Shown: piece after piece, positions 11,350-63,378 of the stretch | Layout: every line of letters starts with the position of its first letter | Numbering within the stretch: the first letter of the stretch is position 1 | DNA from: Eubacteriales bacterium | GTDB taxonomy: Bacteria; Bacillota; Clostridia; Oscillospirales; CAG-272 | DNA: 64,000 bases | NCBI GenBank assembly: GCA_045632925.1 | Contig: JAZQXP010000057.1 | Location: forward strand, 67,447 to 131,446 | Reading direction: 5' to 3' | Notes under the pieces: generated by a model | Seen by the model: only the letters and a program-made list of their open reading frames with translations | The model's database searches: none | What the model was told of the DNA's origin: nothing | Program-made: the position numbers and the translations under genes

Positions 11350-12015
11350 ATGACAAAGCAGGAACTTCTCAAATACGCAGACCACACTCTCCTCGCTCCC
11401 ACGGCAACAGAGGCAGAGATCAAGGTCATCTGCGACGACGCAATAAAGTACGAGACCGCATCTGTCTGTATCCCCGCGACCTATATCGCTTTCGCCCGCG
11501 ATTACACTGAGGGCAAGCTCAATCTCTGCACCGTAATCGGCTTTCCTCTCGGCTACAGCACGACCGCTGTCAAGTGCGCGGAGGCTCGCGATGCGATCGC
11601 AAACGGCGCGAATGAGATCGATATGGTTGCAAATATCTGCAATATCAAGAACGGCAGATTCGATCTTGTTGAGGAGGATATCCGCGAGGTCAAGAAAGCC
11701 TGCGGCGATAAGATCCTCAAGGTCATCATCGAGACCTGCCTCCTTACCGACGAGGAAAAGGTAAAGATGTGCAAGATCGTCGGCGCTGCGGGTGCCGATT
11801 ATATCAAGACCTCCACGGGCTTTTCCACCGGCGGAGCTACCCGCGAGGACATCGCTCTCTTTGCCGCAAACGTACCCGAGGGACTTAAGATCAAGGCGGC
11901 GGGCGGTATCCGCTCCTTTGAGGATGCCGAGGCATTTGTAAAGCTCGGCGCATCGAGACTCGGTACCAGCGCGCTTGTCAAGCTGATGAAGGCTGAGGAA
12001 GTAAAGGGCTACTAA
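11350..12015 (+). CDS. deoC: Deoxyribose-phosphate aldolase
   Basis: [35 protein letters not shown] is a class I DERA. The start at 11350 follows a GGAGG RBS. Confidence 0.92.
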
Positions 12016-23085: not shown

Positions 23086-23416
23086 GGTCGTAGGGCATTG
23101 GACGAAGCCGAAGGACCCGAACAGCGTTCGCTTCCGCCGCGAAATGGCGGAGAAGATCGCGGGTCAGTATATCAAATACGTAACCGAGCGCATCAACAAC
23201 GTCGACGAGGTCATCGGACGCAAGGGCAGCCTTGCCATCCGCGAGGACGAATTCCTTGTTTTCGCCTCCGCCGATATCCTCTTCCGCTGCAAGATCGACG
23301 AACTCCGCGCAAGCGAGCTCCTTTCAAAGGACGGAGTAGTTTTAATTGGTCCTGACCTCGAACACGGCGGAGAAGAGAGAACGATTATTGCGTATTATGT
23401 ATATTATAGGAAGTGA
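23069..23416 (+). CDS. Small hypothetical protein overlapping the end of the GH13 gene
   Basis: 115 aa ORF with an AAAGGAGA RBS and a 17-nt overlap with the upstream gene, on the same strand as the operon. I recognise no family. Confidence 0.55.
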   Translation: MGFWSKVVGHWTKPKDPNSVRFRREMAEKIAGQYIKYVTERINNVDEVIGRKGSLAIREDEFLVFASADILFRCKIDELRASELLSKDGVVLIGPDLEHGGEERTIIAYYVYYRK

Positions 23417-23531
23417 TTCTGTCGGCTTCGCCGAATGATAGTCCGCCATTGGCGGAATGATGATCACGCTTCGCGTGAATGATGATCCGCTGAAGCGGAA
23501 TGAAGGAAGATTTTCGCCGAGGCGAAAATCT
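23417..23531 (+). repeat. Tandem mini-hairpin array: five hairpins separated by ATGATGA-type 7-nt linkers
   Basis: TCGGC-TTC-GCCGA, TCCGCC-ATT-GGCGGA, TCACGC-TTC-GCGTGA, TCCGC-TGAA-GCGGA and AGATTTTCGCC-GAG-GGCGAAAATCT are spaced 20-22 nt apart. The array starts 1 nt after the TGA stop. Confidence 0.85.
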
Positions 23532-24279: not shown

Positions 24280-24338
24280 GATTTTCGCCTCAGCGAAAAT
24301 CTACCTTCATTTTGCATTTTGCATTTTTAATTTTGCAT
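24280..24338 (-). repeat. Heptamer tract (ATGCAAA-type on the minus strand) plus an A/T-clamped cap hairpin, directly after the FAD-oxidoreductase stop
   Basis: The minus strand reads TAA-ATAAATGCAAAATTAAAAATGCAAAATGCAAAATGAAGGTA-GATTTTCGC-TGAG-GCGAAAATC. The cap and its ATGAAGG lead-in closely match 23500-23531. Confidence 0.8.
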
Positions 24339-26216
24339 TTATTTAACGTCTGCCGAGAACAGATGAACCTTACTGCTTCCTCTTGTTTCATCAAATACGA
24401 TGGTGAGCTTCTGTGCCTTAACGCCGAGGGCGATCTTGCGCAGAGAATTACGGTTGTTGGTGTCGGCGAAGATCTCCTTGCCGTCTGCAAGAACGCGGAA
24501 GGATTTGACGAGAGTCTTTGCAACCTTTACGGGAACGAAATCCTTGCCCGTCATAAGCTTCTGCGCGAAGACGCGCATCTTCTTGTTGGGAGTGATCGAC
24601 TTGCGCGAGAAGTCGGGGTCGAAGACGAGACGAAGCTCGGAAAGCTCCTTTTCTTCACCAAAGTCAAACTCGAGCGCATCGCCGATCTCGAGCGTTGCGT
24701 AGTTGACGTTCATTTCCTCGTCGGGACGCTCGATGCCGTTCTGAAGAAGTGCAAGCTCGGATTCGGGGAGATTGATCTTCGCGCTCTTGGTGAGCTCGGG
24801 AATCTCGCGGACGGTGCCGGGGATATAGCAGCCCGCGTCGCGAAGCTTGTCCTGAAGGACCTTGATCTTCTGCTCGTAAACGCCGTGGGGAGTTACGCCG
24901 TCATTAATACAGATCGAAGCAGCGGTACCCATAGCCTGACCGATGAGGGCACAGGTTGCCATAACACGGGTCGAGCTCATTGCGGCGTGGGTCGCGCTGA
25001 TATTTCTACCCGCGAAGAAGAGGTTGTCAACCTCGTGACCGTAGAGCACGCGGTAGGGAATGCCGTAGGGCGAAGGAGCGGGATATAGCTTGGATGCGGG
25101 TGCGCCGCTGAGATAGGAACGGAAGCCCGCGGGGTTGTGGTCGTCCATCGGCCAACCGCCGTAAGCGACTATATCGTCAAACTTTCCGCCCGACTCGATG
25201 TCATTTTCGGTGAGAACGTGCGCGCCGATGTAGCGGCGGCTCTCTCTCTTACCGGGGATACAACCGACCCACTCGAGGGTCCAGTTGGTTGCGTTGTGGT
25301 CGCCGTAGTTCTTGACGTGATCCCAGATGCCGTACGCGATCTTGAGAAGCTCGTCGCGCATTTCCTCGGCATCGTGGATGCTGTCATACTCGCCGCCGAG
25401 CTCGAGCCACCAGAAGTTGGTCTCGCTTGTGCCGAGCTTGTGGGGACGTGCAAGGTACTTGACGTCCTGAACTTTAACGCCGGAAACGCCCGTGCTTGCA
25501 TCGATGATGTTGCCGCTTGCATCCTTGATAAGGTTGAAGTCGTCGTCGGTCTCGAATTTATATGCCCAATCGGGAGCGGTGAAGGGAACGGGCTCGTCGG
25601 TCTCGCGTGCCTGAATGAGGCAGGACATGCCCATGGTCTTTTTGTCTGCAACCTCCTTACCCATAGCCTCGCCGTACTCGGAAGCCGCCTCACGGCCGAC
25701 ACGCCACTTCGCGCCCGAGATGGGAGCGAGGATCGAGTCGCCCGAGCAGTCAGCAAAATAAGTAGCCTTTACGGTGTGCCAGGTGTAGGTCGTCATCTGC
25801 CAAGCGGTGACGGATGTGAGGTGCGACACGCCATCCTTCTCGGTGCGATCGGCGTCACAGCAGGTGGTGTTGAGAAGAAGGGTGATATTCTTCTCAGCCT
25901 TGACCTTCGCCCAGAGCACGTTGTCGAAGGTGGAGGGGATGAGGGTGGGGTTGAGGTAGATATTTTCCTCTTCGATCTCGGAGATGATACCCGTCTCGCG
26001 GTTCTCAAGACCGTGCGCGCCTCTGACCCACATTCTGATCTCGCTCGATGCGTTACCGCCGAGCACGGGTCTGTCCTGGATGAGGACGACCTTTGTGCCT
26101 TCTCTTGCAGCTGCGATAGCGGCACAGAGACCGGTAAGACCGCCGCCGATGATGCAGAGGTCGGTGTTATGTTCAATATGGCGCATGCCGTTTGTTTTAA
26201 TAGTAAGTTCGCTCAT
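24339..26216 (-). CDS. FAD-dependent oxidoreductase (FAD_oxidored family)
   Basis: The N-terminus DLCIIGGGLTGLCAAIAAAREG..LGGNASSE is a Rossmann FAD motif. 625 aa. An AAGGAG RBS is present. Confidence 0.85.
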   Translation of the reverse strand: MSELTIKTNGMRHIEHNTDLCIIGGGLTGLCAAIAAAREGTKVVLIQDRPVLGGNASSEIRMWVRGAHGLENRETGIISEIEEENIYLNPTLIPSTFDNVLWAKVKAEKNITLLLNTTCCDADRTEKDGVSHLTSVTAWQMTTYTWHTVKATYFADCSGDSILAPISGAKWRVGREAASEYGEAMGKEVADKKTMGMSCLIQARETDEPVPFTAPDWAYKFETDDDFNLIKDASGNIIDASTGVSGVKVQDVKYLARPHKLGTSETNFWWLELGGEYDSIHDAEEMRDELLKIAYGIWDHVKNYGDHNATNWTLEWVGCIPGKRESRRYIGAHVLTENDIESGGKFDDIVAYGGWPMDDHNPAGFRSYLSGAPASKLYPAPSPYGIPYRVLYGHEVDNLFFAGRNISATHAAMSSTRVMATCALIGQAMGTAASICINDGVTPHGVYEQKIKVLQDKLRDAGCYIPGTVREIPELTKSAKINLPESELALLQNGIERPDEEMNVNYATLEIGDALEFDFGEEKELSELRLVFDPDFSRKSITPNKKMRVFAQKLMTGKDFVPVKVAKTLVKSFRVLADGKEIFADTNNRNSLRKIALGVKAQKLTIVFDETRGSSKVHLFSADVK

Positions 26217-27240: not shown

Positions 27241-27294
27241 TTTATGTTCTCCTTATCGGAATAAATTTCATCAAAATACAATATAATAAAATCC

Positions 27295-27437
27295 GTTTTT
27301 TCGGCGGCTTTGCCGCCAAAAAAACACCTTTTAGACGAGCCAAGCGAGTCCGCGCGCCGAGGGGAGCTGCCAAAATCTCTGATTTTGACAAGCGGCGATA
27401 AGCGCGCGTCTTCACTTGTAAAACGCAGTTTTACAAG
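27295..27437 (-). repeat. Cluster of A/T-clamped hairpins in the aldolase 3' region
   Basis: Three hairpins are present: CTTGTAAAAC-GCA-GTTTTACAAG (27415-27437), TGCCAAAATC-TCT-GATTTTGACA (27368-27390, complete only as minus-strand RNA via G-U) and TTTTTCGGCGGC-TTT-GCCGCCAAAAA (27295-27324). Confidence 0.65.
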
Positions 27438-27443
27438 TTGCGT

Positions 27444-42248: not shown

Positions 42249-44741
42249 TTATCCGATAACGACGGTATATGCACCCTCGGAAAGCGGGAAGACGATGCGA
42301 TCGCCGATGCGTCTGCCGTTCATCTCCTCAAGCGTGAAATCGACGCCGTTGATCTTCATCGAGTCCTTTTCGGATATGAGAGATACCGTTGCGGCGGTCT
42401 CCTCGGGGATGATGAAGCTGTATTCGAAGCGGTCGCCGATCGATACCCACGCGCTCTCGATGCGACCCGCAACAGAGTCGAAGGATGCGCGAGCGTTGCG
42501 GATTTGGGTCTGACCCGCGGGAAGCTCGTCGTTGCGTCTCATATCGGGTGTGGGAGCGAGGAAGAAGTGTTCCCATCCGGGAACCTCGGGATCGGGCTTG
42601 ATTCCGCACATACCCGAATAGAGCCATTCCGCAACTGCGCCGTAGGCGTAGTGGTTGAAGGAGTTCATGCCGACGTTGCCGAAGCCGCTCTCGAGAGTGT
42701 AGGAATTCCATCTCTCCCAGACGGTTGTCGCGCCCTGACGGACCGAGTAGAGCCAGCTGGGATCGCGGGTCTGGAGCAGGAGCGAATAGCAAAGCGAATG
42801 CAGACCGAGCCGCTCAAGAGTCTGATTGAGAATACCCGTGCCGACGAATCCCGTCGAGAGGGTATAGTCGTTGTCGATGATCTTTTTCTCGAGCTTCTTG
42901 ATATAGGAATCGCGATCCTCCTCGGGAACGAGGTCGAAGGCGAGAGCGAGGAGATACGCGGTCTGAGTCTTGATCGTCAGATCGCCGTTTTCAATATATC
43001 TGCATCTCCAATGAGAAACGATGCGCTCGCGCAGCTCCGCGTAATGAGCGGCACGCTCGGGCTTGCCGAGGATCTCGCAGAATTTCTTCATAAGAGAAGC
43101 GTCGTATGCGTAGTAGGATACCGCGATGTAACGCTTGTCGGTGACGTCGTAGTTGAGCCAGTCGCCGTATGCGGTGTTGGGACCCTCAAGACCGAACTGC
43201 TCGAGGTACTGCATATAGTACTCCATCGAGTCGAAATGCTCCTCGAGGATCGCCTTGTCGTTGTACATTTCGTAGAGCTTGTTCGGAACGATCAGACAAG
43301 CATCACCCCAGGCGGCGTTGCCGTTGTTGCCGGTGAATACACGCGGGATAACGTCACAGTACGCGCCGTCAAAGCCCTGCTGAGAATCACGGGCGTCGCC
43401 GAGCCACTTGTGCATAAAGGGACGGATGTCCGCGAGATATGCAGCCGCGCCCGCAAAGATCTGCGTGTCGCCCGTCCAACCGAGACGCTCGTCGCGCTGA
43501 GGACAGTCTGTGGGGGCGGAGAAGTAGTTACCTCTCATACCCCATACGATATTGGAATAGAGGCGGTTGACCTCGGGATTGTCGCAGGAGAAATCTCCGG
43601 TCTCGGTAAATTCGGAGCAGATGACCTCGCCAGCAACCGAGAGAACGTCGACTTCGCGGTCAGCGCGGATCTCGAGGTAGCGGAAGCCGAAGAAGGAATG
43701 AGTCGGGAAATAGGTCTCGATGCCGTTGCCCGAAGCGACGTAAACGAGACGCGCCAGAGCCGAGCGGTAGTTCTTGATGTACATACTGCCCTTGGGACCG
43801 TCGTTTCCGCGGGCGGGATCGCCGCTGTCGTTGAGCATTTCGGCAAAGTAGATCTTGATCTTTGTTCCGCGCGGAGCCTTGAACATAAGGATCGGGCGTC
43901 CGACCATATTCTGACCCATATCGAGGATCAGAGCCTCACCGAATTCGAGTCTCGTCTGCTCGCACCAGTCGCCTACGTTCTTCGAGATGACGTTGATCTC
44001 GCCGTACTCGGAGCCGTCGTGGACCGTGCCGTTGTGGCAGACCGCCGAGATCGGGCGGAGAAGAAGCTCGTGGCGCGGTCTGATAGCGGGACCGACGAGG
44101 GGTACTATCTCGCAGGTGTAATCGGTGAAGAGCTCGGCGTTGACCCATTCGTGAGCCTCGGGAGCGATAGAGGGCTCGGGAACGGTTGCGTCGTAGTATT
44201 CGCCGTCCCAGATGTCGGCAAACATAACGGGACCGCAGATGGCAGCCTTCCAGTCCTCACCCGACGCGATGATCTCATTCTCACCGTCGGCGTACTCGAT
44301 CTCGATCTCGCCCGCGAATGCCATAGGCTTGAAGCCGTAGAATCCGAAGGAGATACGGCCCGTCCACCAGCCGGGAGAAACCTCGGCTACGATGCGGTTT
44401 CTGTCCTTGCAGAGAGGAGTGATATCGTATTCATACTCAAATACGCGGCTGCGGTAGTCGGTCCAGCCGGGCTTGTATTCGTCGGCGGTGGGGATGCCGT
44501 CGATCTCGTGACCTACGCGCGCACCGTTGACGAAAACGTCGAAGATACCGAGTGCGGTTGCGCGGAGGGTGACCTTTTCGACCGCACGTCCGGGCTCGGG
44601 AGCAAACTCGCAAAGCAGGTTAAGGAGACCCTTACCCGGCTCAAGCTCGCGCTCGTAGCTGTTGAATTTCATATTTTTCCAAGGATGCTCGACGGGGTTG
44701 CCCACGAGCGAAGGATGGGTTATAAATCTTGCCTTTTTCAT
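42249..44741 (-). CDS. Alpha-L-rhamnosidase (GH78), no signal peptide
   Basis: PTDCPQRDERLGWTGD and WERW..NSFNHYAYGAV are GH78 hallmarks. 830 aa. Confidence 0.92.
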   Translation of the reverse strand: MKKARFITHPSLVGNPVEHPWKNMKFNSYERELEPGKGLLNLLCEFAPEPGRAVEKVTLRATALGIFDVFVNGARVGHEIDGIPTADEYKPGWTDYRSRVFEYEYDITPLCKDRNRIVAEVSPGWWTGRISFGFYGFKPMAFAGEIEIEYADGENEIIASGEDWKAAICGPVMFADIWDGEYYDATVPEPSIAPEAHEWVNAELFTDYTCEIVPLVGPAIRPRHELLLRPISAVCHNGTVHDGSEYGEINVISKNVGDWCEQTRLEFGEALILDMGQNMVGRPILMFKAPRGTKIKIYFAEMLNDSGDPARGNDGPKGSMYIKNYRSALARLVYVASGNGIETYFPTHSFFGFRYLEIRADREVDVLSVAGEVICSEFTETGDFSCDNPEVNRLYSNIVWGMRGNYFSAPTDCPQRDERLGWTGDTQIFAGAAAYLADIRPFMHKWLGDARDSQQGFDGAYCDVIPRVFTGNNGNAAWGDACLIVPNKLYEMYNDKAILEEHFDSMEYYMQYLEQFGLEGPNTAYGDWLNYDVTDKRYIAVSYYAYDASLMKKFCEILGKPERAAHYAELRERIVSHWRCRYIENGDLTIKTQTAYLLALAFDLVPEEDRDSYIKKLEKKIIDNDYTLSTGFVGTGILNQTLERLGLHSLCYSLLLQTRDPSWLYSVRQGATTVWERWNSYTLESGFGNVGMNSFNHYAYGAVAEWLYSGMCGIKPDPEVPGWEHFFLAPTPDMRRNDELPAGQTQIRNARASFDSVAGRIESAWVSIGDRFEYSFIIPEETAATVSLISEKDSMKINGVDFTLEEMNGRRIGDRIVFPLSEGAYTVVIG

Positions 44742-44864
44742 GACTTTCTCCTTGCGGATTTATAGTTATAATTATTATACTATATTTTTAAGGAAAATGC
44801 AAGGGAAATGAAAATAAAAGTAAAGTAAGAACGGGCAAAATACAATAATACTTATCAAATTTCA

Positions 44865-45036
44865 TTGCGAGTCTGTAGGGGACGGCGCCCTCGACGTCCA
44901 ACTTTGCGAGAGTTATGATCGCGCAAAGCGCGAGTTAAGATCGGCTTGCGCCGAGTTAATATTGCCTTCGGCAAGTTAAGATTCGCCTGCGGCGAAGTTT
45001 AAGGTGAATTTCCTCGCTGAAGCTTCGGAAATTTTC
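44865..45036 (+). repeat. Tandem mini-hairpin array: GTTAAGA-type 7-nt linkers plus a cap hairpin
   Basis: The TTGCGAG direct repeat flanks GGACG..CGTCC. It is followed by TCGCGC-AAA-GCGCGA, TCGGC-TTGC-GCCGA, TTGCC-TTCG-GGCAA, TTCGCC-TGC-GGCGAA and AATTTCC-TCGCTGAAGCTTC-GGAAATT at 20-24 nt spacing. Confidence 0.85.
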
Positions 45037-45061
45037 AATTATTAATCAATACGCAGTCCTA

Positions 45062-45090
45062 TTGACAATACATAAAAAATATAGTAGAAT
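45062..45090 (+). promoter_or_regulatory. Promoter of the lipoprotein pair
   Basis: TTGACA, a 17-nt spacer, then TAGAAT. Confidence 0.7.
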
Positions 45091-45167
45091 ATAATTGTAA
45101 TTTTTTTAATTTACGTGAAACTTTTTCGCTCGGATTTCGTCTTATAGTATGAAAGGAGTAAAACGTT

Positions 45168-46055
45168 ATGAAAAAACTGTCTTTTATACTGAATTTTATA
45201 ATGCTTGTAGGCTTGCTTTCATCCTGCGGTGCACGTGAAGATAGATTTGAGCTTACGTATGAAAGCGACCGAACTCTTTACCTTGTCGGCGAGACGGTTA
45301 AGATAACGGCGAAGGTGACTAACGTATCGGGCAGAACGTATACCTACCGCGGCGGCTCGAGCGATTACAGACCCTACGTCCGCCTCTATCCCGTTCTCGA
45401 GGACGATAAGCTCGGCGAACCGCTTGAACACCTTCCGATCGCATCGACCACGGACATGCCGTCAAGGCATAAGATCGCGGACGGCAAGAGCGGGCAGGTG
45501 ACGTTTGAGTTCCCGCTTCCCGAAGATGCACATATTGGAAAATACACCGTCAGCCTTTCATATGAGGGTGCGAAGAAGGTCTTTGACGGAGCGATAAGCG
45601 TGGTACGCCCCGCGGAGCAGAATCATAAGGATGGCTTACCTTACAGCTCTGTGACTGTGAACTCGGGCGGTGAATCTATTTATCCGTTGAGAGGTCTTTC
45701 GACTATAAACGAGTACGTCAACGGTAAGCCCGGGCTTTGCGGAGACGGCAAGGGAGTTTACTGGTTTTTTGACGATCCGGAGCTTACCCCTGACGATTAT
45801 CCTTGTCTTGTCATCTCGGGCGAGGTTACCGTTACCGCACGCGAAAACCTGCGGATCGGCGGAGCGTATTTGTATGATTTTAATTTCGAAAGACTTGATT
45901 ATAACGGAGGATTTGAAGGGCTTTCCGAGCTCCCCGCGGGCGAGTATCTTGTGGTGTTTACCGAATATTACGACGGAAGTCTTGAAGACCCGACCGCACA
46001 GACTTACGACAAAATACTGTACGAAAACCTTTTCAAACTTATAATAAGGAGTTGA
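45168..46055 (+). CDS. Lipoprotein: an Ig-like N-terminal module plus one copy of an uncharacterised roughly 140-aa module
   Basis: The signal peptide carries the lipobox LSSC. A GAAAGGAG RBS is present. It is a paralog of the next gene. Confidence 0.7.
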   Translation: MKKLSFILNFIMLVGLLSSCGAREDRFELTYESDRTLYLVGETVKITAKVTNVSGRTYTYRGGSSDYRPYVRLYPVLEDDKLGEPLEHLPIASTTDMPSRHKIADGKSGQVTFEFPLPEDAHIGKYTVSLSYEGAKKVFDGAISVVRPAEQNHKDGLPYSSVTVNSGGESIYPLRGLSTINEYVNGKPGLCGDGKGVYWFFDDPELTPDDYPCLVISGEVTVTARENLRIGGAYLYDFNFERLDYNGGFEGLSELPAGEYLVVFTEYYDGSLEDPTAQTYDKILYENLFKLIIRS

Positions 46056-47703: not shown

Positions 47704-47709
47704 AATAAC

Positions 47710-47748
47710 GAAAACACCCGTGCCGCGGCACGGGTGTTCATATTTATT
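47710..47748. terminator. Bidirectional terminator between convergent surface-protein genes
   Basis: The 11-bp stem ACACCCGTGCC/GGCACGGGTGT has an A-run upstream and a T-rich tail downstream. Confidence 0.85.
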
Positions 47749-47757
47749 ATTTAAAAA

Positions 47758-48975
47758 TTATTTAGCACGAAGCTTCTTGCTTACGATAAGTGCTGCACCA
47801 AAGAGCGAAACAAATGCCGTAATTGCAACTGCCGCGGTATATGTGTCACCTGTTTCGGGGTTCTCCGGTACAACAGGCTCGGTATCTTCTGCAATAAGCT
47901 TGAAGCTTACCTTCGGGATAAAGTTGCCTAATGGATCGTCAGATCTTTGAGAAAGAGCGAGGCGTATGCACTCGTTGTCTTTTGTGGTTACGTATTTATA
48001 AACAACGTATCCGTTTTCCTGAGGAGTCTGGATCTCGTTTGCGACAGATCCGCCTACAGCCAGGTAATTTGCGCCGTTCTCATTGGGTACCCATACACCA
48101 TCGGAGTTCTGTGCCCAGCTTGACAGAGCAAATCCGCCTGCGGTAAGATAGTGGCTTGTTGTCGTATCGACCCATATGATCTCGGTTCCTGCTTTTTCAA
48201 CGCAGATGACCTGAGATGAGAAAATGCCCGCATAAGTCTGAACTACAGCGAATTTTTCGCTGCCGCTTTTATCACTCTCGGTGCCGGAAGAGAAGTATCC
48301 AAAGTTCCACTCAACGTCAAGCTCGATTCCTTCTCTGGTAGCGGAAACCTTCAAAGCGTCTCTTGTGTCATTCTTGAGAATATTCAAAGTATCGAGTGTG
48401 CCTCTTTTGCCTGTAAGCCTGAAGCTGACGATAGGAAGAGCGGCGCCTTTATCATTTTTATTTGAAACGCCGAGAATAAGGCACTCGTTGTCCTTGCTTG
48501 TAACGTATTTGTATGTAACCGTTCCGTCTGCATTCAAATATTCGATATTGTTTGTGTTTTCAGCGCCCTCGTTTCCTTTGAAGTTCGCTCCGCTTGCATC
48601 ACCCTGCCAATAACCGTTGGCATCCTTTACCCAAGAGGAGAGGGAGTAACCGCCCGAGGAGAGGAAATGATTCTTTCCCGTATCGGTCCAGCTTATCTCG
48701 GTTCCTGCCTTTTCAACGCAAATAACGTTTGAATGGAAGATGGTAGCATATTCGACCAACTTATAACGATTGGACGAGCCCGTTCCTATGTATCCGGGAG
48801 ACCACGTAAGCTCCACCGCGATACCTTCTTCGGTAGCTGTTATTTTCTGAGCCTCGCTGTTGTCAACAAAATCCACGGCAGCAGCGGATGCGGGCGAAAC
48901 AATTAGAGACATAGAAGCCATTGATGTCAGTATGAACGCCATGATCAGGCTGATGATCTTTGTTGTGATCTTCAT
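47758..48975 (-). CDS. Secreted cell-wall-anchored protein with two roughly 170-aa internal repeats and an NPXTG-type sorting signal
   Basis: It has an N-terminal signal peptide (..SPASAAA) and a C-terminal ENPETGD followed by a hydrophobic stretch and KKLRAK. The two repeats share VICVEKAGTEI.W.DT and YKYVT.KDNEC. Confidence 0.7.
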   Translation of the reverse strand: MKITTKIISLIMAFILTSMASMSLIVSPASAAAVDFVDNSEAQKITATEEGIAVELTWSPGYIGTGSSNRYKLVEYATIFHSNVICVEKAGTEISWTDTGKNHFLSSGGYSLSSWVKDANGYWQGDASGANFKGNEGAENTNNIEYLNADGTVTYKYVTSKDNECLILGVSNKNDKGAALPIVSFRLTGKRGTLDTLNILKNDTRDALKVSATREGIELDVEWNFGYFSSGTESDKSGSEKFAVVQTYAGIFSSQVICVEKAGTEIIWVDTTTSHYLTAGGFALSSWAQNSDGVWVPNENGANYLAVGGSVANEIQTPQENGYVVYKYVTTKDNECIRLALSQRSDDPLGNFIPKVSFKLIAEDTEPVVPENPETGDTYTAAVAITAFVSLFGAALIVSKKLRAK

Positions 48976-49137
48976 AATTCTTCTCCTTGTTTTTTAAATA
49001 TAATTTTTACATATGTAAAATATTAAGATTATTATAGCACATTTGATTTTCGATTACAATAATTTGAACAAAAAAATTGAACAAATTATTATTTTTAGTA
49101 GATATATACAACTTACACTTCGATTTTTCAGCATTAT

Positions 49138-49174
49138 GAACAATAAGACCTCCTCACCCGAGGGCGAGGAGGCT
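49138..49174 (-). terminator. Terminator of hpf
   Basis: As minus-strand RNA, GCCTCCTCGCC-CTCG-GGTGAGGAGGT forms a hairpin (one G-U pair). A T-rich tail follows. Confidence 0.75.
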
Positions 49175-49217
49175 TCTTCATTACATTAGTGCCCTGCAAT
49201 CTGTCGGTACTGATGAT

Positions 49218-55849: not shown

Positions 55850-55872
55850 GAAAGAAAAAACGGAGAATGGCA

Positions 55873-57480
55873 ATGAAAAAACATATCAGAATCCTGACAG
55901 CTTTAATATCCCTTTTGTTTATCCTTCCTCTGTTCGGCTGTACCGGCGGAGAAGGCGAAGTGACTTCAAGCACTCCCGATCCCGAAAATACACCACCTGC
56001 GGTCACCGATGCACCTGAGACCGATGCACCCGAGACCGTTGCACCCGAGACCGTTGCACCCGAGACAGACGCGCCCGAGACAGAGCCTGCAGAGGTTGTT
56101 GACGACGAGTGGACGGCTTTGAGAAAGAAGGCAGAGGGCGAGGGCATCAAGGTCCTCTTTATCGGCGACAGCCTGACTCATTATAACGATATGCCCGTGA
56201 TATTCGAGGCTCTGTGCCGCGCCGCAGGCAAGAAGGTCACCGCCGCCGCACAGACAAAGGGCGGCACGGGTATTGCGATGTACCGCGAGGATGCCGCGCT
56301 CTGGGAGACGTACAGCAAAAGGATCGCTTCGGATAATTGGGACATCATCATTTTTCAGCCCAACCGCAACAATACCGTTATGACCGAATTCTTCCCCTAC
56401 TATCCCTGGAAGGAATACTCCGCGGCAAAGGACGTCGTTGAGCTGATCAAGGCGGCGGGCGCGATTCCTCTTCAGTACTCGAGCTTCGGCGTGAACAAGG
56501 GATATGTTACCCGCGAAGGAAACACCAAGAGAATGTCCAGAATCGAGCATACGAATCTTGTAACCGCATATAATGCAGCAGTTTCCGAAATGCTCGGAAC
56601 CAAGGCTGTTTACGTCGGCGCAACCTTCAATAAGGTCATCGACGAGCATCCGGGCTACGGAATGTATCATACCGACAATTCGCATCCCTCGGCTACGGGA
56701 AGCTATCTTATCGCGTCGGATTTCTATACCGTGATCTTTGGCGAGGCACCCGTAGACGTTGATTTCACCAACGGACTTGACGCCGAAATTGCAAAGACGC
56801 TCCGTGAAGCCTCCGCAATGCTTCTTGATTACGCTCCCACCGAGAAGGCTGAGATCAAGTACGTCGAGGAGGAAAAGAAGGAGAAGGGCACTCTTACCTT
56901 CGGTTCACACGGCTTTACGGGCATTGCCGCAGAGGGAAAGAGCGGAATGTTTGACGTCACCGAGGACAACAAGACCATCAGCTATACCTACAAGAGCGGC
57001 GACGGCATCATATATTCCTTTGCAACTCTCGACGGAAAGCCCGTCTCGGGAAACAGCCTGATCTTTGAGGCTGACGTTACGATCGGAAAGTATTGCGGAA
57101 GCAAAAACCCGACCGCGGGACTTCAGCTTATCGACGAAAAGGGCAAGACCTACCGCCTCTACCTGCGTACTGCGGGCGGAAACATCACGGGTACGGACAG
57201 CTCGACCGCAACCTTCCATATCCGCACAGACCACGACAGCAGTAAGACGCGTACCGATCTCGGAAGCTTCTCGAATAAGGTCAAGCTTCGCCTCGAGGTC
57301 ACACCCGACTCTATGACCCTCTATACCGACGGTCAGATGTATATGAAGATCACTTATGAGGGCACCGAATTCTTTGACGGCACCAAGACCGACAAGATGA
57401 CCTACGACGGCTCCGACGTTCAGCTCGGACTCGTAACCTGCTATGCGGATACGAGATTCGATAACGTGGTGATTAATTAA
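55873..57480 (+). CDS. Lipoprotein with an SGNH/GDSL hydrolase domain and a C-terminal lectin-like domain
   Basis: The lipobox is LFGC. An (APETx)5 linker follows, then the GDSL block VLFIGDSLT. The C-terminal beta-sandwich-like region is unassigned. Confidence 0.75.
   Translation: MKKHIRILTALISLLFILPLFGCTGGEGEVTSSTPDPENTPPAVTDAPETDAPETVAPETVAPETDAPETEPAEVVDDEWTALRKKAEGEGIKVLFIGDSLTHYNDMPVIFEALCRAAGKKVTAAAQTKGGTGIAMYREDAALWETYSKRIASDNWDIIIFQPNRNNTVMTEFFPYYPWKEYSAAKDVVELIKAAGAIPLQYSSFGVNKGYVTREGNTKRMSRIEHTNLVTAYNAAVSEMLGTKAVYVGATFNKVIDEHPGYGMYHTDNSHPSATGSYLIASDFYTVIFGEAPVDVDFTNGLDAEIAKTLREASAMLLDYAPTEKAEIKYVEEEKKEKGTLTFGSHGFTGIAAEGKSGMFDVTEDNKTISYTYKSGDGIIYSFATLDGKPVSGNSLIFEADVTIGKYCGSKNPTAGLQLIDEKGKTYRLYLRTAGGNITGTDSSTATFHIRTDHDSSKTRTDLGSFSNKVKLRLEVTPDSMTLYTDGQMYMKITYEGTEFFDGTKTDKMTYDGSDVQLGLVTCYADTRFDNVVIN
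56011..56085 (+). repeat. Five tandem 15-bp coding repeats (APETD/V linker)
   Basis: GCACC(T/C)GAGACCG(A/T)T repeats five times with drift, in frame within the lipoprotein gene. Confidence 0.9.
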
Positions 57481-57788
57481 GTGCAGAGTGTAGAGTGTAG
57501 AATGCAGAGTTAATGTAATTTTTCTCGCGATGCTCGAAAAATATTTGTGGGATAATTTAATTTGGCACTGATAACACTTCGCTTAGCTATAACATTTAAT
57601 AGCTAAACAAATAACTCGGAAATCAATGAAGATTACTTCAAAGATTTCCGAGCATTTTTTATTTACCAAATTTATTGTTTATCGCAAAACAATAGTTTGC
57701 CAAAGCAAAACATAATTCTTTAACTTCTAATTTCCGAGCTCGCTCGGAAATTATCCTCAACTCTGCATTATGCACTCTGCACTCTGCA
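57481..57788 (+). repeat. Repeat element copy A: inverted heptamer ends plus cap hairpins around an A+T-rich core with a terminator
   Basis: The left end is GTGCAGA GTGTAGA GTGTAGA ATGCAGA GTT plus the hairpin TTTTTC-TCGCGATGCTC-GAAAAA. The right end is the hairpin AATTTCCGAG-CTCG-CTCGGAAATT plus inverted heptamers at 57761-57788. It starts at the first base after the TAA stop. Confidence 0.85.
57615..57660 (+). terminator. Terminator inside element A
   Basis: The stem CTCGGAAATC/GATTTCCGAG is followed by CATTTTTTATTT. Confidence 0.8.
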
Positions 57789-60565: not shown

Positions 60566-61387
60566 ATGAATGTTCTTGACAAAATGATGAATGCAATAGC
60601 GGCGGAAATGACTCCGCCGCCGGCATACGGTACCTTTCATATAATTCTGATCATCGTCGGTATGACCCTCTGCATTTCGCTTGCTTGGCTCTGTCGAAAA
60701 TTCGACGACAGAAAGAATAAGATCCTGCTGCTTTCCTTCGCGGGCGTTCTGATCGTGAGCGAGATCTTCAAGCAGATCTTCCTCTTTTTCGTTGTCGAGG
60801 AGAACGCGATCTGCTGGGGCGAGTTCCCCTTTCAGATGTGCTCGATGCCGATGTATCTTTGCCCCGTCGCGGTATTGTCGAAGAATGAAAGGATCAGCCG
60901 CGCGGCTTACGGCTTTATGATGTGCTTCAATCTGCTCGGCGGATTTGCGGGCGTTTTTGAGCCCTCGGGAGTCTTTCTCACGCAGGTGCCGCTGACCGTC
61001 CACGCGATCGCTTGGCATTATTCGCTCGTCTTCCTCGCGTTTTACATAATCTTCTCGCACCGCGCGGGAAGCACGAAGCGGGATTATTTCGATATCGTCA
61101 AGCTCTTTGTTGCGCTCTGCTTCGTTGCATTCGTGATCAATACCCTGATCGGTATTACGGTCGGCGCAGAGGTCAATATGTTCTTCGTCGGACCGAATCC
61201 CGCGCCGATAATAGTTTTCAATACGATCGCGCAAAAATTCGGCTGGGCGGCGAGCACGGTGATCTATATACCGATAACCTCGCTTGCGGCGGGAGTGATA
61301 TTTTTGATAAATGCAAAATGCAGAATGCAGAGGGCAGAGGGAGTGCAGAGTGCAGAGTGCAGAGTGCAGAATGCAGAGTTAAGGTAA
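60566..61387 (+). CDS. Polytopic membrane protein (YwaF/TIGR02206-like) whose last roughly 25 codons are the heptamer repeat
   Basis: It has about 7 TM segments. The C-terminus reads KCRMQRAEGVQSAECRVQSAECRVQNAELR, which is translated from the TGCAGAG repeats. Confidence 0.65.
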   Translation: MNVLDKMMNAIAAEMTPPPAYGTFHIILIIVGMTLCISLAWLCRKFDDRKNKILLLSFAGVLIVSEIFKQIFLFFVVEENAICWGEFPFQMCSMPMYLCPVAVLSKNERISRAAYGFMMCFNLLGGFAGVFEPSGVFLTQVPLTVHAIAWHYSLVFLAFYIIFSHRAGSTKRDYFDIVKLFVALCFVAFVINTLIGITVGAEVNMFFVGPNPAPIIVFNTIAQKFGWAASTVIYIPITSLAAGVIFLINAKCRMQRAEGVQSAECRVQNAELR

Positions 61388-61652
61388 ATTTCCTCGCGAT
61401 GCTCGGAAATTGTTCCTTATGATAATTGTATTTCTGCATGATAACCTTTTGTACTGTTCTGAACCGTTGTTTAATAATAAGAAACTCGAGATATAATGAA
61501 GTTTTTTACGCTTCACTGTATCTCGAGTTTTCTATTTGGTTTTTATATGTTTTAGATTAACTAAGGATTATCAGCACAAAATATATTTATTTCGGTATGC
61601 TTTTCGAACAAAGTTCGAAAAGCTTCCATAACTCTGCATTCTGCACTCTGCA
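61309..61652 (+). repeat. Repeat element copy B, homologous to copy A
   Basis: About 10 heptamers (AATGCA.. drifting to TGCAGAG) are followed by AGTTAAGGTA and the hairpin AATTTCC-TCGCGATGCTC-GGAAATT. Next comes a core similar to copy A, then the hairpin CTTTTCGAAC-AAA-GTTCGAAAAG and inverted heptamers at 61632-61652. Confidence 0.85.
61482..61537. terminator. Bidirectional terminator inside element B, serving 60566-61387 and glcK
   Basis: The stem CTCGAGATA/TATCTCGAG has T-rich tails on both strands. Confidence 0.75.
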
Positions 61653-61664
61653 CTCCCTTCGCCT

Positions 61665-62621
61665 TTAACCCAAAAGCGCTGCTCCGATAATTCCCGCTTC
61701 GTTTCCGAGGGTCGCGATGCGGATCTCTGTCGGACGGACGATACCGTTGCCGTAGGTCTCCGCTCTTACCAGGGGAACGAGGGGAGTGAGGAGATTGTCC
61801 TTCTCGTTCGAGATGCCGCCGCCGATAGAAAGGACCTCGGGCTGGAAGATGTTGATAATATTGATAATGCCGCAAGCGAGGTGCTTTATGTAGGAATCAA
61901 CGACCTCTTTTGCCGCCGCGTCGCCTGCGCGCATAGCGTCAAAGGACGTGCGTCCCGATACCTTGCCGCGCTCTGCTGCCATATCCGACATAAGTGTGTT
62001 GATGCCCTTTTCCTTGCATTCGGCGATCTTTTCCTCGGTCATCTTGACAAGAGCCGTTGCAGAGCTGTAAGCCTCCCAGCATCCTTTTCTTCCGCAGGAG
62101 CAGGGTCTGCCGTCGCAAACGATAACGATATGTCCGAGCTCGGCGCCCGCATAGTTAAAGCCGGAATAGATCTTGTCATCTATAACGATGCCGCCTCCGA
62201 CACCCGTACCGAGCGTGATCATGATCGAGCTCTTCGAGCCCTTTGCCGCTCCGACCTTAGCCTCGCCCCAAGCTGCGGCATTGGCGTCGTTTTCAATGGT
62301 TACCTTCGGAACGGGGAATCCCTCCTTGAACTTATCAGCAAGGGGGAAGTTACGGAAGGGAAGGTTATTGGCGTATTCAACTACTCCCGTGTCGTGGTTT
62401 GCAACGCCGGGGCTGGCAATACCTACAGCCTCGATCTCGTCGATGGAGATCTCTGCGTTTTTGATCAGATCGTGGCAAAGCTTTGCCATATCCGCAACGA
62501 TCTCGTCTGCGGGTCTGTGCGCACCCGTGGGAATGCTCTGACGGGAAAGAATAGTTCCTTCATTATTTACAATACCTGCGGCAATATTTGTACCGCCAAG
62601 GTCAACACCGACTCTGTACAT
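61665..62621 (-). CDS. glcK: ROK-family glucokinase
   Basis: VGVDLGGTNIAAG..ENDANAAAWGE..CSCGRKGCWEAY are the ROK zinc-motif sequences. Confidence 0.9.
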   Translation of the reverse strand: MYRVGVDLGGTNIAAGIVNNEGTILSRQSIPTGAHRPADEIVADMAKLCHDLIKNAEISIDEIEAVGIASPGVANHDTGVVEYANNLPFRNFPLADKFKEGFPVPKVTIENDANAAAWGEAKVGAAKGSKSSIMITLGTGVGGGIVIDDKIYSGFNYAGAELGHIVIVCDGRPCSCGRKGCWEAYSSATALVKMTEEKIAECKEKGINTLMSDMAAERGKVSGRTSFDAMRAGDAAAKEVVDSYIKHLACGIINIINIFQPEVLSIGGGISNEKDNLLTPLVPLVRAETYGNGIVRPTEIRIATLGNEAGIIGAALLG

Positions 62622-62686: not shown

Positions 62687-62710
62687 CCGAATTTCTATTT
62701 TTTTAATTGA

Positions 62711-62772
62711 TTTTCTCGCATCGCGATAAAAACTACCTTACTTCTTACCTCTTACCTTTTACCTCTTACCTC
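62711..62772 (-). repeat. Heptamer tract (GAGGTAA-type on the minus strand) plus cap hairpin, directly after the J-protein stop
   Basis: The minus strand reads TGA-TGC-GAGGTAA GAGGTAA AAGGTAA GAGGTAA GAAGTAA GGTAG-TTTTATCGC-GAT-GCGAGAAAA. Confidence 0.85.
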
Positions 62773-62775
62773 GCA

Positions 62776-63378
62776 TCAGCAACAGGGTCCTCCAATGCAA
62801 AGGTTTGCGCAGATGCAGATTCTCAGGCAGTCGCAGAAGCTGTCCGAGCAGTCCGTGTGCGTGGTGTATGTGCCGCCCTGATAGGACGATGTCCTTGCGC
62901 GGAGCTGTTCGCGTGCGGCGCGGTATTCCTCGTTTTCGGGATCGCGTTCGCAGGCAATATCGAAGCATCTGCCCGCGTCGATGATGTTTCCGCGCATCAT
63001 CAGAGTGATTCCGCGGAGATAGTACCATTCCGCGCCGCGCTCGTTCTGCGGAACGGTGGAAAGAACGGCTTCAGCTTCTCGTACACGGCGCGCGTTGATG
63101 TGAACGCGGACTGCAACGTATCTGTCGTCACCTGAGGACGAGGTCTCGTTATAATGCGCACCCCCGTAGTATGAATCCTGCGACTTGCCCGAGCGGATCT
63201 TCTGGATCTCCTCGTATGCGGCGTTGATCTCCTTCATTTTTTCCTCGGCGCGTGCACGCTCGGCGGGATCGGTGAATTTATCTGGGTGGTTTTCACGGGC
63301 GAGCTTTCGGTAAGCCTTTTTGATATCGTCGTCGCTCGTCTCACGGCTTACGCCGAGCACCGAAAAGGGATCTCTCAT
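62776..63378 (-). CDS. J-domain protein with a TPR-like middle region and a Cys-rich C-terminal tail
   Basis: The J domain ([23 protein letters not shown]) carries the HPD motif. The tail is [24 protein letters not shown]. Confidence 0.85.

Follow-up and report, generated by a model that had tools for sequence, protein, structure and literature searches.

Heptamer and mini-hairpin arrays in an uncultured ruminant-gut Clostridia: a mosaic block between two divergent promoters

Pneumococcal BOX elements are modular, MITE-like repeats of the form boxA-(boxB)n-boxC, with modules of 45-60 bp and conserved sequence, and the STRR heptamers of cyanobacteria are direct repeats of 7-nt words in intergenic DNA. 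The TAACTGA heptamer arrays of Beggiatoaceae, Cyanobacteria and Bacteroidetes use a single word genome-wide, which is placed just upstream of start codons (PMC4679880). REP elements, REPINs and BIMEs, together with the RAYT transposases, offer a further system for comparison (PMC2817692, PMC3733652, PMC8266576), and Firmicutes are not mentioned in the survey of the GTAG/CGTC tag (PMC3733652). At the level of single hairpins, d(GCGAAGC) and other d(GNA) DNA mini-hairpins are extraordinarily stable and have been described at ssDNA origins (G4, ssiA) and in the hairpin promoters of phage N4 (PMC13037366; PMC3201870).

The locus described here lies in the window, that is, the whole stretch of 64,000 nucleotides analysed from a contig of an Eubacteriales bacterium, and consists of 7-nt words alternating with GC mini-hairpins. 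It is probably a relocated orphan of a polar, REP/BIME-like family of 3′-UTR repeats, tolerated as a passenger at a promoter. The family itself, abundant heptamer plus mini-hairpin arrays of uncultured ruminant-gut Clostridia (Eubacteriales MAGs), is apparently undescribed, since arrays of this build were found neither in Rfam nor in the literature searched.

Architecture and setting of the block

A preliminary description of this DNA had proposed a mini-hairpin array built like another one at 23417-23531. Direct reading, a hairpin scan and shuffled sequences bear out the four perfect GC hairpins and the cap, which take their place among the following features:

44774-44802, minus strand: putative rhamnosidase promoter TTGCAT-17-TATAAT, outside the element, ~50 bp from its left junction
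44847-44851, no strand: left direct repeat AATAC (sequence reading and alignment with relatives)
44852-45052, plus strand: whole indel block, a mosaic repeat element of 198-201 bp with an ambiguous right edge (45049 to 45052)
44875-44899, plus strand: REP-like head, GTAG tag (44875-44878) and palindrome GGACG-N10-CGTCC (GTAGGGGACGGCGCCCTCGACGTCC)
44912-44996, plus strand: array proper, GTTATGA and four perfect GC mini-hairpins with stems of 5-6 bp and loops of 3-4 nt
44912-44918, plus strand: opening linker word GTTATGA (direct reading)
44919-44933, plus strand: hairpin 1, TCGCGC-aaa-GCGCGA, then linker GTTAAGA (direct reading and hairpin scan, as for hairpins 2 to 4)
44941-44954, plus strand: hairpin 2, TCGGC-ttgc-GCCGA, then linker GTTAATA
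44962-44974, plus strand: hairpin 3, TTGCC-ttc-GGCAA, then linker GTTAAGA
44982-44996, plus strand: hairpin 4, TTCGCC-tgc-GGCGAA
44997-45004, plus strand: pre-cap motif GTTTAAGG (family consensus ~GTTAAGG-W-A)
45006-45034, plus strand: cap hairpin GAATTTCC-TCGCTGAAGCTTC-GGAAATTT, with an A/T-rich foot, one G.T pair and a 13-nt loop
45035-45043, plus strand: A/T-rich tail TCAATTATT, with which the element probably ends
45048-45052, no strand: right direct repeat AATAC (sequence reading and alignment with relatives)
45062-45090, plus strand: lipoprotein-operon promoter TTGACA-17-TAGAAT, outside the element, 10 bp from its right junction

The linkers of the array follow one another at 22, 21, 20 and 22 nt. 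Reading of both arrays confirms that the companion at 23417-23531 (array 1) is built in the same way around ATGATGA words, and that the same TCAATTATT follows its cap. This tail occurs four times in the window (0.65 expected), the other two copies lying within coding sequence, and the same or a near-identical end is found as CAATTATAG in L017 and L019 and as TCAATTAAAA at ~62718. Among the arrays compared, the pre-cap precedes the cap in every array family, and the cap type of 45006-45034 recurs in two heptamer arrays of the window, at 61389-61413 (AATTTCC-TCGCGATGCTC-GGAAATT) and at 57520-57544. Chains of at least three such hairpins appear in none of 100 dinucleotide-preserving shuffles of the window, where the longest chain is of two, as compared to the chains of 4 and 5 that the same scan detects in the window itself. 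The RNA fold of the whole region is weakly better than that of shuffles (z = -1.7 on either strand), because GC-rich shuffles fold too, and the evidence for the array is the regular chain of local hairpins and not the total folding energy.

The array is an orphan copy between the -35 boxes of two divergent promoters, located as first described: the rhamnosidase starts at 44741 on the minus strand, and the lipoprotein promoter, kept in all relatives compared, occupies 45062-45090. The rhamnosidase promoter, read directly and conserved in relatives, matches at 3/6 positions of the -35 box and is given as putative because it falls below the threshold of the promoter scan. The gene downstream of the array encodes an MG2-domain lipoprotein (Pfam), and exact-protein look-ups of this lipoprotein and of the rhamnosidase returned no record. 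Upstream of the hairpins, the reported TTGCGAG...GGACG-N10-CGTCC...TTGCGAG unit is real (44865-44910), with the head flanked by TTGCGAG at 44865-44871 and 44904-44910. The purine-rich tract that precedes it had been given a 7-nt beat and counted with the module; at lag 7 the autocorrelation of 44790-44860 (0.375) does not exceed the mean of shuffles (0.379, p = 0.58), and most of the tract (to 44851) is also present in a relative without the array, which places it outside the element, as ancestral promoter spacer.

Presence, absence and relocation among relatives

The array is the core of a non-coding block of 198-201 bp (44852-45049/45052), exactly which is missing from the nearest relative, L004, between flanks of 96.6% and 94.8% nucleotide identity. 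The L004 lipoprotein is 96% identical in amino acids to that of the window, and the blastn alignment ends at 44851 and restarts at 45056. Clean comparison of a filled with an empty site here involves this one pair; five more distant relatives (L005, L006, L001, L011 and L013) also show no block, which in one multiple alignment is absent from L004, L005, L006 and L001. On both sides the block has the neighbours expected from synteny, and its 3′ junction (cap, tail and lipoprotein promoter) is found at 97% identity in the independent metagenome contig L002. L002, L004 and L166 come from metagenomes of yak, sheep and cattle. L166 carries at this site an inverted copy of the GTAG element instead. 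The preliminary description had suggested a mobile or templated origin. A presence/absence polymorphism of ~200 bp, with L004 empty despite flanks 95-97% identical, and the occurrence of same-type arrays at other loci and in other genomes support mobility, and nothing in the analysis points to templating.

As for the target-site duplication expected of such an insertion, AATAC does stand on both sides of the block, or alternatively an 8/9 match of AATAATAC and AATCAATAC. With its short A/T-rich sequence and a single site, the repeat would be weak evidence for a duplication and could be either this or a recombination microhomology. The locus of array 1 does not help in this respect, as the empty site in L021 carries a different terminator and its strongly diverged junctions are unusable.

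The composition of the block is that of a mosaic, in which a GTAG-tagged, REP-like palindrome is joined to an array and to a cap common to other window arrays. The 25-mer of the head, GTAGGGGACGGCGCCCTCGACGTCC, is multi-copy in relatives (five copies in L009 and five in L012), often in inverted pairs; it is also present in L008 and L166, and it heads CGATAT-type arrays in L008 and L012. The central 42 nt of the block (44941-44982), made of TCGGC-ttgc-GCCGA, GTTAATA, TTGCC-ttc-GGCAA and GTTAAGA, are identical to a stretch of the hpf-3′ array of L166 and 97.6% identical to that of L004. Both strains have this GTTAAKA array 3′ of the hpf terminator, 2.7 kb away, where the window has no array and a 405-aa gene takes its place; considered as a recombinase, this gene turned out to encode an NPXTG-anchored surface protein. 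The match with the hpf-3′ array of close strains indicates that the block is a relocated copy rather than an ancient part of the promoter.

The most likely pathway would start from the hpf-3′ array of close strains, from which the central units of the block would derive by copying or transfer of DNA, either through short-homology recombination or through some transposition activity; they would have landed in the spacer between the two divergent -35 boxes, where nothing would have been broken. The copy at the promoter would most likely be a tolerated passenger, its effect being an inter-promoter spacer ~200 bp longer.

The repeat family and the described systems

Eight polar arrays are present in the window and ~20 in ~260 kb of related contigs. 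A real, co-oriented gene precedes six of the eight, which begin at its stop codon, as also happens in relatives (L012 at 15213, L005 and L084), and most family members are 3′ of stop codons and upstream of terminators, the real terminators standing outside the arrays. The usual site of the family is directly 3′ of a stop codon, co-oriented with the gene and before its terminator. The independence from a 3′-UTR context that had been claimed holds for the copy at 44912-45043, but this copy is the exception. Orientation in the window (four arrays on each strand) tracks the upstream genes and not replication, because all 8-kb bins have a positive GC skew. The element at 44852-45052 has three parts, the GTAG REP-like head, direct units of a word plus a GC mini-hairpin, and a GTTAAGG-type pre-cap followed by the cap and the A/T-rich tail.

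The heptamer words are the core of the arrays and the hairpins are optional, as indicated by the hairpin-free arrays of the window (AGTGCAG x10 at 61310, AGGTAAG x5 at 62772 and CAAAATG x4.7 at 24340). Each of the words GTTAAKA, ATGATRR, GTGATAT and CGATAT recurs across several loci and genomes, contrary to the first impression of a linker heptamer specific to its array. Even orthologous arrays at the hpf locus differ in their words, GTTAAKA in L004 and L014 and ATGATAR in L007, L011 and L015. Other candidate meanings of the words do not hold: AUGAUGA as a C/D-box is at odds with the unrelated words of other arrays, complementarity to anticodon loops was ruled out by inspection, AGTGCAG, CAAAATG and CGATATA contain no stop codon that would allow words to act as stops in all frames, and quasi-palindromes lengthening the stems would pair weakly and inconsistently (GCTAAAT, ATGATGA).

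Turnover of the units is seen at the locus of array 1, upstream of a gene for a membrane protein, where strains have either four or five units, stems change with compensation (TCCGCC/GGCGGA to TCTGCC/GGCAGA) and one strain with an identical upstream protein has no array at all; the array is 73% identical between strains, as compared to 89-91% for the adjacent spacer. A metagenome scan for AGTTAAKAT-N-AGTTAAKAT-N-AGTT gave, among the matches listed, true arrays in L058 and L084 only, the others being mostly chance A/T-rich sequence. In viral contigs this pattern had 17 matches, all by chance and none of them an array, and plasmid and phage sequences searched by blastn with the block gave no match.

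BOX elements presumably share with these arrays a head, variable internal modules and a tail, together with an intergenic location, foldability, a copy number that varies between strains and the lack of coding capacity. The internal module of the window family, a 7-nt word that a variable mini-hairpin may or may not accompany, would be the difference, and to our knowledge there is no sequence similarity between the two. The TAACTGA and STRR repeats are, like these arrays, runs of 7-nt words repeated in tandem at many intergenic loci; however, the arrays use several words, start at stop codons, interleave hairpins and end in a cap hairpin.

The arrays also resemble REP, REPIN and BIME elements, as short GC-rich extragenic palindromes of high copy number, whose clusters are mosaics of palindromes and conserved linker motifs, often directly 3′ of stop codons and polymorphic in presence between strains. 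The head of the block carries GTAG plus a palindrome and is found as inverted pairs in relatives, and a multi-copy extragenic palindrome of 20-40 bp is exactly what GTAGGGGACGGCGCCCTCGACGTCC is in these genomes, the whole arrays being multi-copy as well. On the other hand, the GTAG tag is confined to the head, and the four mini-hairpins are preceded by GTTAAKA words instead. Stems are not conserved in alternating orientation; they vary from unit to unit, and all units are direct, as the polarity of the TTC/TGC loops shows. Unlike REPs, the units are perfect mini-hairpins of 13-15 nt whose constant part is a 7-nt word from one of several word families, and, unlike REPs and BIMEs, the arrays have a polar end module of pre-cap and cap. 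No RAYT or other transposase is found in the Pfam lists of the window neighbourhood or of the fetched loci, and in L009 and L012 the ORFs enclosed by inverted GTAG copies have no Pfam match.

Other mobile elements offer partial parallels. Terminal inverted repeats of a MITE are not seen, as the 5′ end TTATCAAATTTCATTG has no more than an A/T-rich AAATTTC core in common with the reverse-complemented 3′ end AATAATTGAAAATTTCC. Hairpin-rich ends, the lack of terminal inverted repeats and an end a few nt 3′ of a hairpin foot recall the IS200/IS605-derived PATEs; unlike these, the arrays show no replication-orientation bias (4+/4- in the window), no TnpA or TnpB is nearby, and the same pentanucleotide on both sides of the block is more like a duplication or a microhomology. 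ToxI and CRISPR loci are similar as regular arrays of short units that can precede a hairpin. However, the 23-50-nt conserved repeats and unique, non-palindromic spacers of CRISPRs contrast with a constant 7 nt and variable, perfectly palindromic fillers of 13-15 nt, and ToxI has near-identical ~36-nt repeats before an endoribonuclease toxin gene, against units of 20-22 nt with different stems. No toxin or cas domain was found by Pfam in the genes flanking the arrays at 44912-45043 and 23417-23531. Rfam gave no match at gathering thresholds in the whole window, and at a permissive threshold (E up to 10) 44700-45200 gave only noise (E above 3, 14 bits). The units are not intrinsic terminators either: a weak terminator call was made for hairpin 2 only and none for the cap, and cap stems have their T-run in the 5′ arm and their A-run in the 3′ arm, the opposite of a terminator.

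The function of the family is most likely that of a REP/BIME-like 3′-UTR element. Arrays at the usual site would act as transcribed 3′-UTR structures that shield mRNA 3′ ends or are coupled to translation termination, although an exonuclease barrier is not the whole story, because the heptamer-only arrays have no hairpins. Intrastrand templated correction, selection or both may keep the arms of the hairpins perfectly complementary.

Alternative readings and consequences

A specific recognition, which falls outside the preferred reading, is suggested by the strong preference for TTC/TGC loops with a C-G closing pair and by the conservation of pre-cap and cap. The arrays could also be a new class of polar 3′-end elements, a multivalent docking track either for a multimeric nucleic-acid-binding factor, with a 7-nt register like that of HutP sites, or for a new ssDNA-hairpin mobilisation machinery, a proposal to which only a modest chance is given. 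Identical words would then start from the stop codon, optionally insulated by non-cross-pairing d/r(C-TTC-G) mini-hairpins and closed by the conserved GTTAAGG and the cap; the word families would be separate specificity groups, and the promoter copy a transplanted and possibly still active module.

It is unlikely that the family is one of ssDNA elements, with GNA-type hairpins extruded in ssDNA or under negative supercoiling, either recognised by HUH/Y1 enzymes or serving as supercoil sinks, and that the block was moved by ssDNA transposition. The enzymes would be a RAYT or an IS200/IS605-like transposase acting on d(C-GAA-G) and d(C-GCA-G) hairpins of the strand complementary to the array. 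The loops of 69 distinct triloop units (TTC 37, TGC 12, TTT 7; C-G closing pair in 65) agree with this, as 71% are GNA loops on that strand, many of them literally GCGAAGC or CCGAAGG, motifs of known extraordinary stability as DNA mini-hairpins (PMC13037366; PMC3201870). Most units thus read there as C-GAA-G or C-GCA-G with a C-G closing pair, although the hairpins described before are single functional ones and heptamer-spaced arrays of them have not been described. Stems that are almost purely Watson-Crick palindromes, the GTAG head and a block end ~9-18 nt 3′ of a hairpin foot, like the right ends of IS200/IS605, point in the same direction. However, a RAYT or TnpA gene was found in none of the fetched loci, the arrays follow genes in both orientations under uniform GC skew, unlike IS200/IS605, the mini-hairpins have no GTAG tag and no conserved stem, and the heptamer-only arrays have nothing to extrude.

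A dedicated structured RNA, either an sRNA or a scaffold for docking proteins or RNAs, whose transcription would begin within the block or shortly before it, is quite unlikely. Its words would be single-stranded, set apart by insulating hairpins, and would hold several copies of one partner, in the manner of HutP or TRAP sites or of a CsrB-type sponge. The polar and regular design, with words identical within an array and stems that differ and do not cross-pair, the pre-cap and cap conserved across families and the position of most members in transcribed 3′ UTRs before terminators are consistent with such an RNA. A weak promoter-like TCGACG-17-TATGAT (44891-44919) would start transcripts at the first hairpin, but it scores 9/12, a level reached 1.3 times per shuffled region. 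Neither a terminator after the cap nor a matching Rfam family is found, and the closest strain manages without the block. Moreover, the stems have almost no G.U pairs (5/276 cells, outer pairs only) and carry triloops instead of the tetraloops typical of stable RNAs; the few non-Watson-Crick pairs lie on both strands, so that G.U versus A.C pairs assign no strand, and transcription of the converging operon at hpf would yield the complement of the array.

An ancestral block, deleted in L004 and the other relatives through the AATAC/AATAATAC microhomologies and never gained in the window lineage, seems very unlikely. Flanking microhomology is what a deletion would use, and the distant L008, L009 and L012 carry arrays at this site, as if occupancy were old. 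However, these have GTGATAT/CGATAT words, other hairpins and a layout of convergent pairs, so they are separate insertions. Independent losses would also be needed in L004, L005, L006, L001, L011 and L013, and the units of the window match the hpf-3′ array of close strains.

Highly improbable, too, is a dsDNA operator or iteron array, whose words, two helical turns apart, would hold a regulator or nucleoid protein on one face and coordinate the divergent promoters. A period of 20-22 bp, identical words within an array, the position between two -35 boxes and the resemblance of contiguous heptad arrays elsewhere to heptad operators agree with it; the words differ between arrays, even between the orthologous ones at hpf, in the closest relatives these promoters function with no block between them, the majority of arrays are found at the 3′ ends of genes and not at promoters, and palindromic GC spacers with compensated changes would be purposeless there. 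A chance pattern or a MAG assembly artefact, to which the breaks of metagenome contigs L002, L003, L022 and L166 inside arrays might lend some colour, hardly deserves credit in view of the 0/100 shuffles, the 97% identical 3′ junction in L002 and the syntenic flanks.

If the family is as it appears, about one small repeat element would be present per 8-15 kb in these uncultured ruminant-gut Clostridia. Fast unit turnover, perfectly compensated stems and word swaps between orthologous arrays make it a compact system for concerted evolution and hairpin-templated correction, and the abutment to stop codons together with the conserved cap suggests an unstudied link between translation termination and mRNA 3′ ends. 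The copy at 44852-45052 has the advantage of being a clean natural transplant whose empty site is known from a close relative. At a practical level, the arrays break short-read assemblies, as several metagenome contigs end within them, and they can lengthen or shorten predicted ORFs, as in the case of 60566-61387.

Architecture of the array and nature of its hairpins

A non-coding block of 198-201 bp (44852-45049/45052), with a hairpin array as its core, separates a four-domain alpha-L-rhamnosidase gene, which starts at 44741 on the minus strand, from the operon of an MG2-domain lipoprotein, which starts at 45168. It is probably a mosaic repeat element of the REP/BIME type that moved, as DNA, to a harmless spot between divergent promoters. 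The array structure that the preliminary description claimed for 44865-45036 reads as stated, with linker-to-linker distances of 22, 21, 20 and 22 nt.

Features of the intergenic region
44802-44774 (-): TTGCAT-17-TATAAT, likely rhamnosidase promoter, judged from conservation
Ahead of hairpin 1 (+): first linker GTTATGA, by direct reading
44919-44933: hairpin 1, TCGCGC-aaa-GCGCGA, then linker GTTAAGA
44941-44954: hairpin 2, TCGGC-ttgc-GCCGA, then linker GTTAATA
44962-44974: hairpin 3, TTGCC-ttc-GGCAA, then linker GTTAAGA
44982-44996: hairpin 4, TTCGCC-tgc-GGCGAA, then pre-cap GTTTAAGG
45006-45034: cap hairpin, GAATTTCC-(13 nt)-GGAAATTT
45035-45043: tail TCAATTATT, directly after the cap
45062-45090 (+): lipoprotein promoter TTGACA-17-TAGAAT

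The companion array at 23417-23531 (array 1), as previously noted, shares the build and tail of this array; its heptamer linker, or word, is ATGATGA. In a scan for perfect GC-rich hairpins 5-10 nt apart, only these two sites of the window gave chains, and chains of at least three hairpins were absent from 100 dinucleotide-preserving shuffles. The whole region folds as RNA only marginally better than its shuffles do (z about -1.7 for either strand), so the signal lies in the regular local structure and not in the total folding energy. For 44790-44860, the proposed 'faint 7-nt beat' shows no excess over chance.

Among 46 distinct units (word plus mini-hairpin), 96% of the stem cells are paired, and the stem positions vary among CG, GC, UA and AU; the inner four pairs are perfect through the selection of units. 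The G.U pairs (5 of 276 cells) all fall within the outer two pairs, and in other arrays the few non-Watson-Crick pairs occur on either strand. Triloops of 69 distinct units, in array orientation, include TTC (37), TGC (12) and TTT (7), with a C-G closing pair in 65 of the 69, and the complementary strand reads C-GAA-G or C-GCA-G, often literally GCGAAGC or CCGAAGG. These are GNA triloop motifs, DNA mini-hairpins whose extraordinary stability is documented (PMC13037366, PMC3201870). They give a lead towards DNA-level hairpins and not a proof, since common descent of the units would also keep loops alike. An element of single-stranded DNA mini-hairpins moved by an HUH enzyme, the alternative on which these loops bear, is unlikely, and no transposase or REP-associated transposase (RAYT) was found in any fetched locus. 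Less likely still is a dedicated scaffold RNA, in favour of which a weak internal promoter-like match (44891-44919) can be cited; no Rfam family matches the array. In unit structure the array resembles neither CRISPR nor ToxI arrays, and the hairpins were rejected as terminators, for which the arm polarity of the cap is also wrong. Neither plasmids nor phages matched the block, and viral contigs held no array.

Presence, absence and mosaic make-up of the block

In the nearest relative retrieved (L004, JAZSEA010000006.1; lipoprotein 96% identical in amino acids), the sequence left of the block, ending at 44851, is 96.6% identical to that of the window, the sequence right of it, starting at 45056, is 94.8% identical, and the intervening block is missing. 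Since L004 has the purine-rich tract (up to 44851) without the block, this tract is ancestral spacer and does not belong to the element. The short intergenic region is also found in the relatives L005 (84%), L006 (80%), L001 (74%), L011 and L013, so that the synteny check suggested for a block of about 170 bp finds the site filled in the window and empty in all of them and in L004. Read the other way, the empty sites would be repeated losses of an ancestral block, which is very improbable. Both edges carry AATAC (AATAATAC vs AATCAATAC), a repeat that hints at a target duplication but is too short and A/T-rich to prove one. One -35 box is about 50 bp away from the block and the other 10 bp, so that neither promoter is interrupted; a duplex operator array at this place is a slimmer prospect still. 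The 3' junction recurs at 97% identity in L002, an independent metagenome contig whose start falls within the array, and an artefact is hardly credible.

Returning to the relocated repeat element, the block is a mosaic, its core being probably a relocated copy. The TTGCGAG...GGACG-N10-CGTCC...TTGCGAG unit reported before the array was confirmed, and contains a GTAG-tagged palindrome (GTAGGGGACGGCGCCCTCGACGTCC, 44875-44899). Relatives carry several copies of this palindrome, often in inverted pairs, and it heads other arrays too. In strain L166, an inverted copy occupies exactly the block's insertion site. REPIN-like inverted pairs of GTAGGGGACGGCGCCCTCGACGTCC and a variant, GTAGGGGAGGGCGTCCTCGACCTCC, were observed in contigs L009 (5293-5602, 8015, 11379-11998) and L012 (12003-12312). 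Because a survey of GTAG/CGTC repeats leaves Firmicutes unmentioned (PMC3733652), a GTAG REP family in Clostridia may be new in itself.

As for the core, L004 and L166 carry a GTTAAKA array 2.7 kb away, on the opposite strand and 3' of the terminator of hpf (a ribosome-hibernation gene). The array's units, TCGGC-tt(g)c-GCCGA GTTAATA TTGCC-ttc-GGCAA GTTAAGA, match window 44941-44982 at 97.6% identity in L004 and 100% in L166. At this hpf-3' place the window lacks the array and has instead a segment of 1.5 kb that contains the gene of an NPXTG-anchored surface protein. The block closes with a pre-cap and cap (GTTTAAGG-TG-AATTTCC...GGAAATT) like those of the heptamer arrays at 61310-61413 and 57480-57544. 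Of the two origins put forward earlier, the mobile one is supported, and the templated one found no support.

The 1.5-kb segment (47705-49215, between the lipoprotein operon and hpf) encodes a 405-aa NPXTG-anchored repeat protein and is likewise present in L001; a hairpin array takes its place in L004 (7537-7701), L166, L003 and others, and the two are alternative occupants of one intergenic site. In more distant relatives, the rhamnosidase/lipoprotein spacer holds two convergent arrays with GTGATAT and CGATAT words and caps facing each other (L008 9575-9860; L012 9700-9860; L009 4960-5245). This spacer is a recurrent landing place.

A family of heptamer arrays

An array of this family consists of n units, a GTTAAGG-like pre-cap, an A/T-footed cap and an A/T-rich tail, and may open with a GC-rich head hairpin. 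Neither Rfam nor the literature that could be searched seems to describe the family. Eight polar arrays lie in the 64-kb window and about 20 more in some 260 kb of related contigs. Homologues come from uncultured Eubacteriales/Clostridia MAGs of yak, sheep, goat and cattle gut, which places the source of the window among these bacteria.

Word groups and the contigs or strains carrying them
GTTAAKA: window, L003, L004, L014, L166; metagenome contigs L058 and L084, among the matches listed
ATGATRR: array 1 and its strain orthologues L017-L022; L007, L010, L011, L015
GTGATAT: L005, L008, L009, L012
CGATAT: L008, L009, L012; four times
GCTAAAT: a fifth word, single occurrence, L010

Orthologous hpf-3' arrays keep the first hairpin (TCGGC-ttc-GCCGA), the last (TTCGCCC-tgc-GGGCGAA) and the cap. 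Their internal words vary by genome between GTTAAKA and ATGATAR, which points to exchange among family members. Among strains with 94-96% identity in the upstream gene product, the array-1 locus shows five units in place of four and compensated stem changes (TCCGCC/GGCGGA to TCTGCC/GGCAGA). One further strain has no array there, and its upstream protein does not differ from the one in array-bearing L019, L020 and L022. Between strains, the array is 73% identical, compared with 89-91% for the adjacent non-coding spacer.

Hairpins are optional, as contiguous-heptamer arrays in the window close with the same pre-cap and cap:

61310-61413 (+): AATGCAG/AGTGCAG x10, then GTTAAGGTA and cap AATTTCC-TCGCGATGCTC-GGAAATT
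61599-61655 (-): inverted partner, GTGCAGA x3, then GTTATGGAA and cap GCTTTTCGAAC-ttt-GTTCGAAAAGC
57480-57544 (+): AGTGCAG x4
57738-57788 (-): its partner
24281-24340 (-): CAAAATG x4.7, then AATGAAGGT and cap AGATTTTCGC-tgag-GCGAAAATC
62700-62772 (-): AGGTAAG x5, degenerate cap with the same TCGCGATGC loop, TCAATTAAAA tail

Six of the eight window arrays start at, or within a few nt of, the stop codon of a gene that has the same orientation and is supported by Pfam or by homologues (23069-23416; 24339-26216; 55867-57480; 60566-61387, whose ORF enters the array; 61665-62621; 62776-63378), upstream of the host gene's terminator, and the same context was found at L012 15213, in L005 and in L084. 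By analogy and from this context, the usual role of the family would be that of a transcribed 3'-UTR structure. The exceptions are the block's array and the 57788 array; the suggestion that the module can exist outside a 3'-UTR context holds for the former, and not as a rule. Four arrays are on the plus and four on the minus strand despite a GC skew that is positive throughout the window, so orientation tracks genes and not replication.

The convergent 61310/61655 pair is set between two convergent genes, and the TMEM164-like ORF 60566-61387 takes its last 26 or so codons and its stop codon from the plus-strand array. The second convergent capped pair (57480/57788) begins at the stop codon of gene 55867-57480. 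It encloses about 200 bp that contain a hairpin resembling a terminator (about 57615-57670) and perhaps a hydrophobic ORF of 29 codons, which lacks a clear ribosome-binding site. The CAAAATG array begins at the stop codon of an FAD-oxidoreductase gene (24339-26216) and faces array 1 across a 176-aa membrane-protein gene, which is thus bracketed by two inward-pointing arrays. In the AGGTAAG array, the stop codon of the DnaJ-domain gene 62776-63378 lies inside the first word, and the next gene's promoter is directly downstream. The 115-aa ORF ahead of array 1 (23069-23416) is a real, widely conserved gene without a Pfam domain, and its homologues in Oscillospiraceae/Ruminococcaceae-type genomes number more than 1000; in L023 the gene ends a glycogen-metabolism cluster (glgB, glgC/D, glgA, glgP, alpha-amylase).

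In L010 (1-385), the capped GCTAAAT array lies within a perfect inverted repeat of about 52 nt (GTGTCCCCTCATCACCCGCTGCGGCGGGAGCTTCTCCCAGGAGAAGCCTGGG and its complement), a different repeat kind nested around it. Another repeat, of about 150 bp (window about 27250-27440, minus strand; L009 about 1300-1450; L010 about 8140-8330), ends in ...CTCGGCGCGCG-N-ACTCGC...GTCT-AAAGGTG-TTTTTTCGG...CCGAAAAAAC-GGATTTTATT and has the end module 'AAGG + A/T-footed hairpin + ATTTTATT' in common with the arrays. Several short-read metagenome contigs break inside arrays or GTAG elements (L002 and L166 at their start, L003 and L022 at their end), so these repeats fragment the assemblies of this clade.
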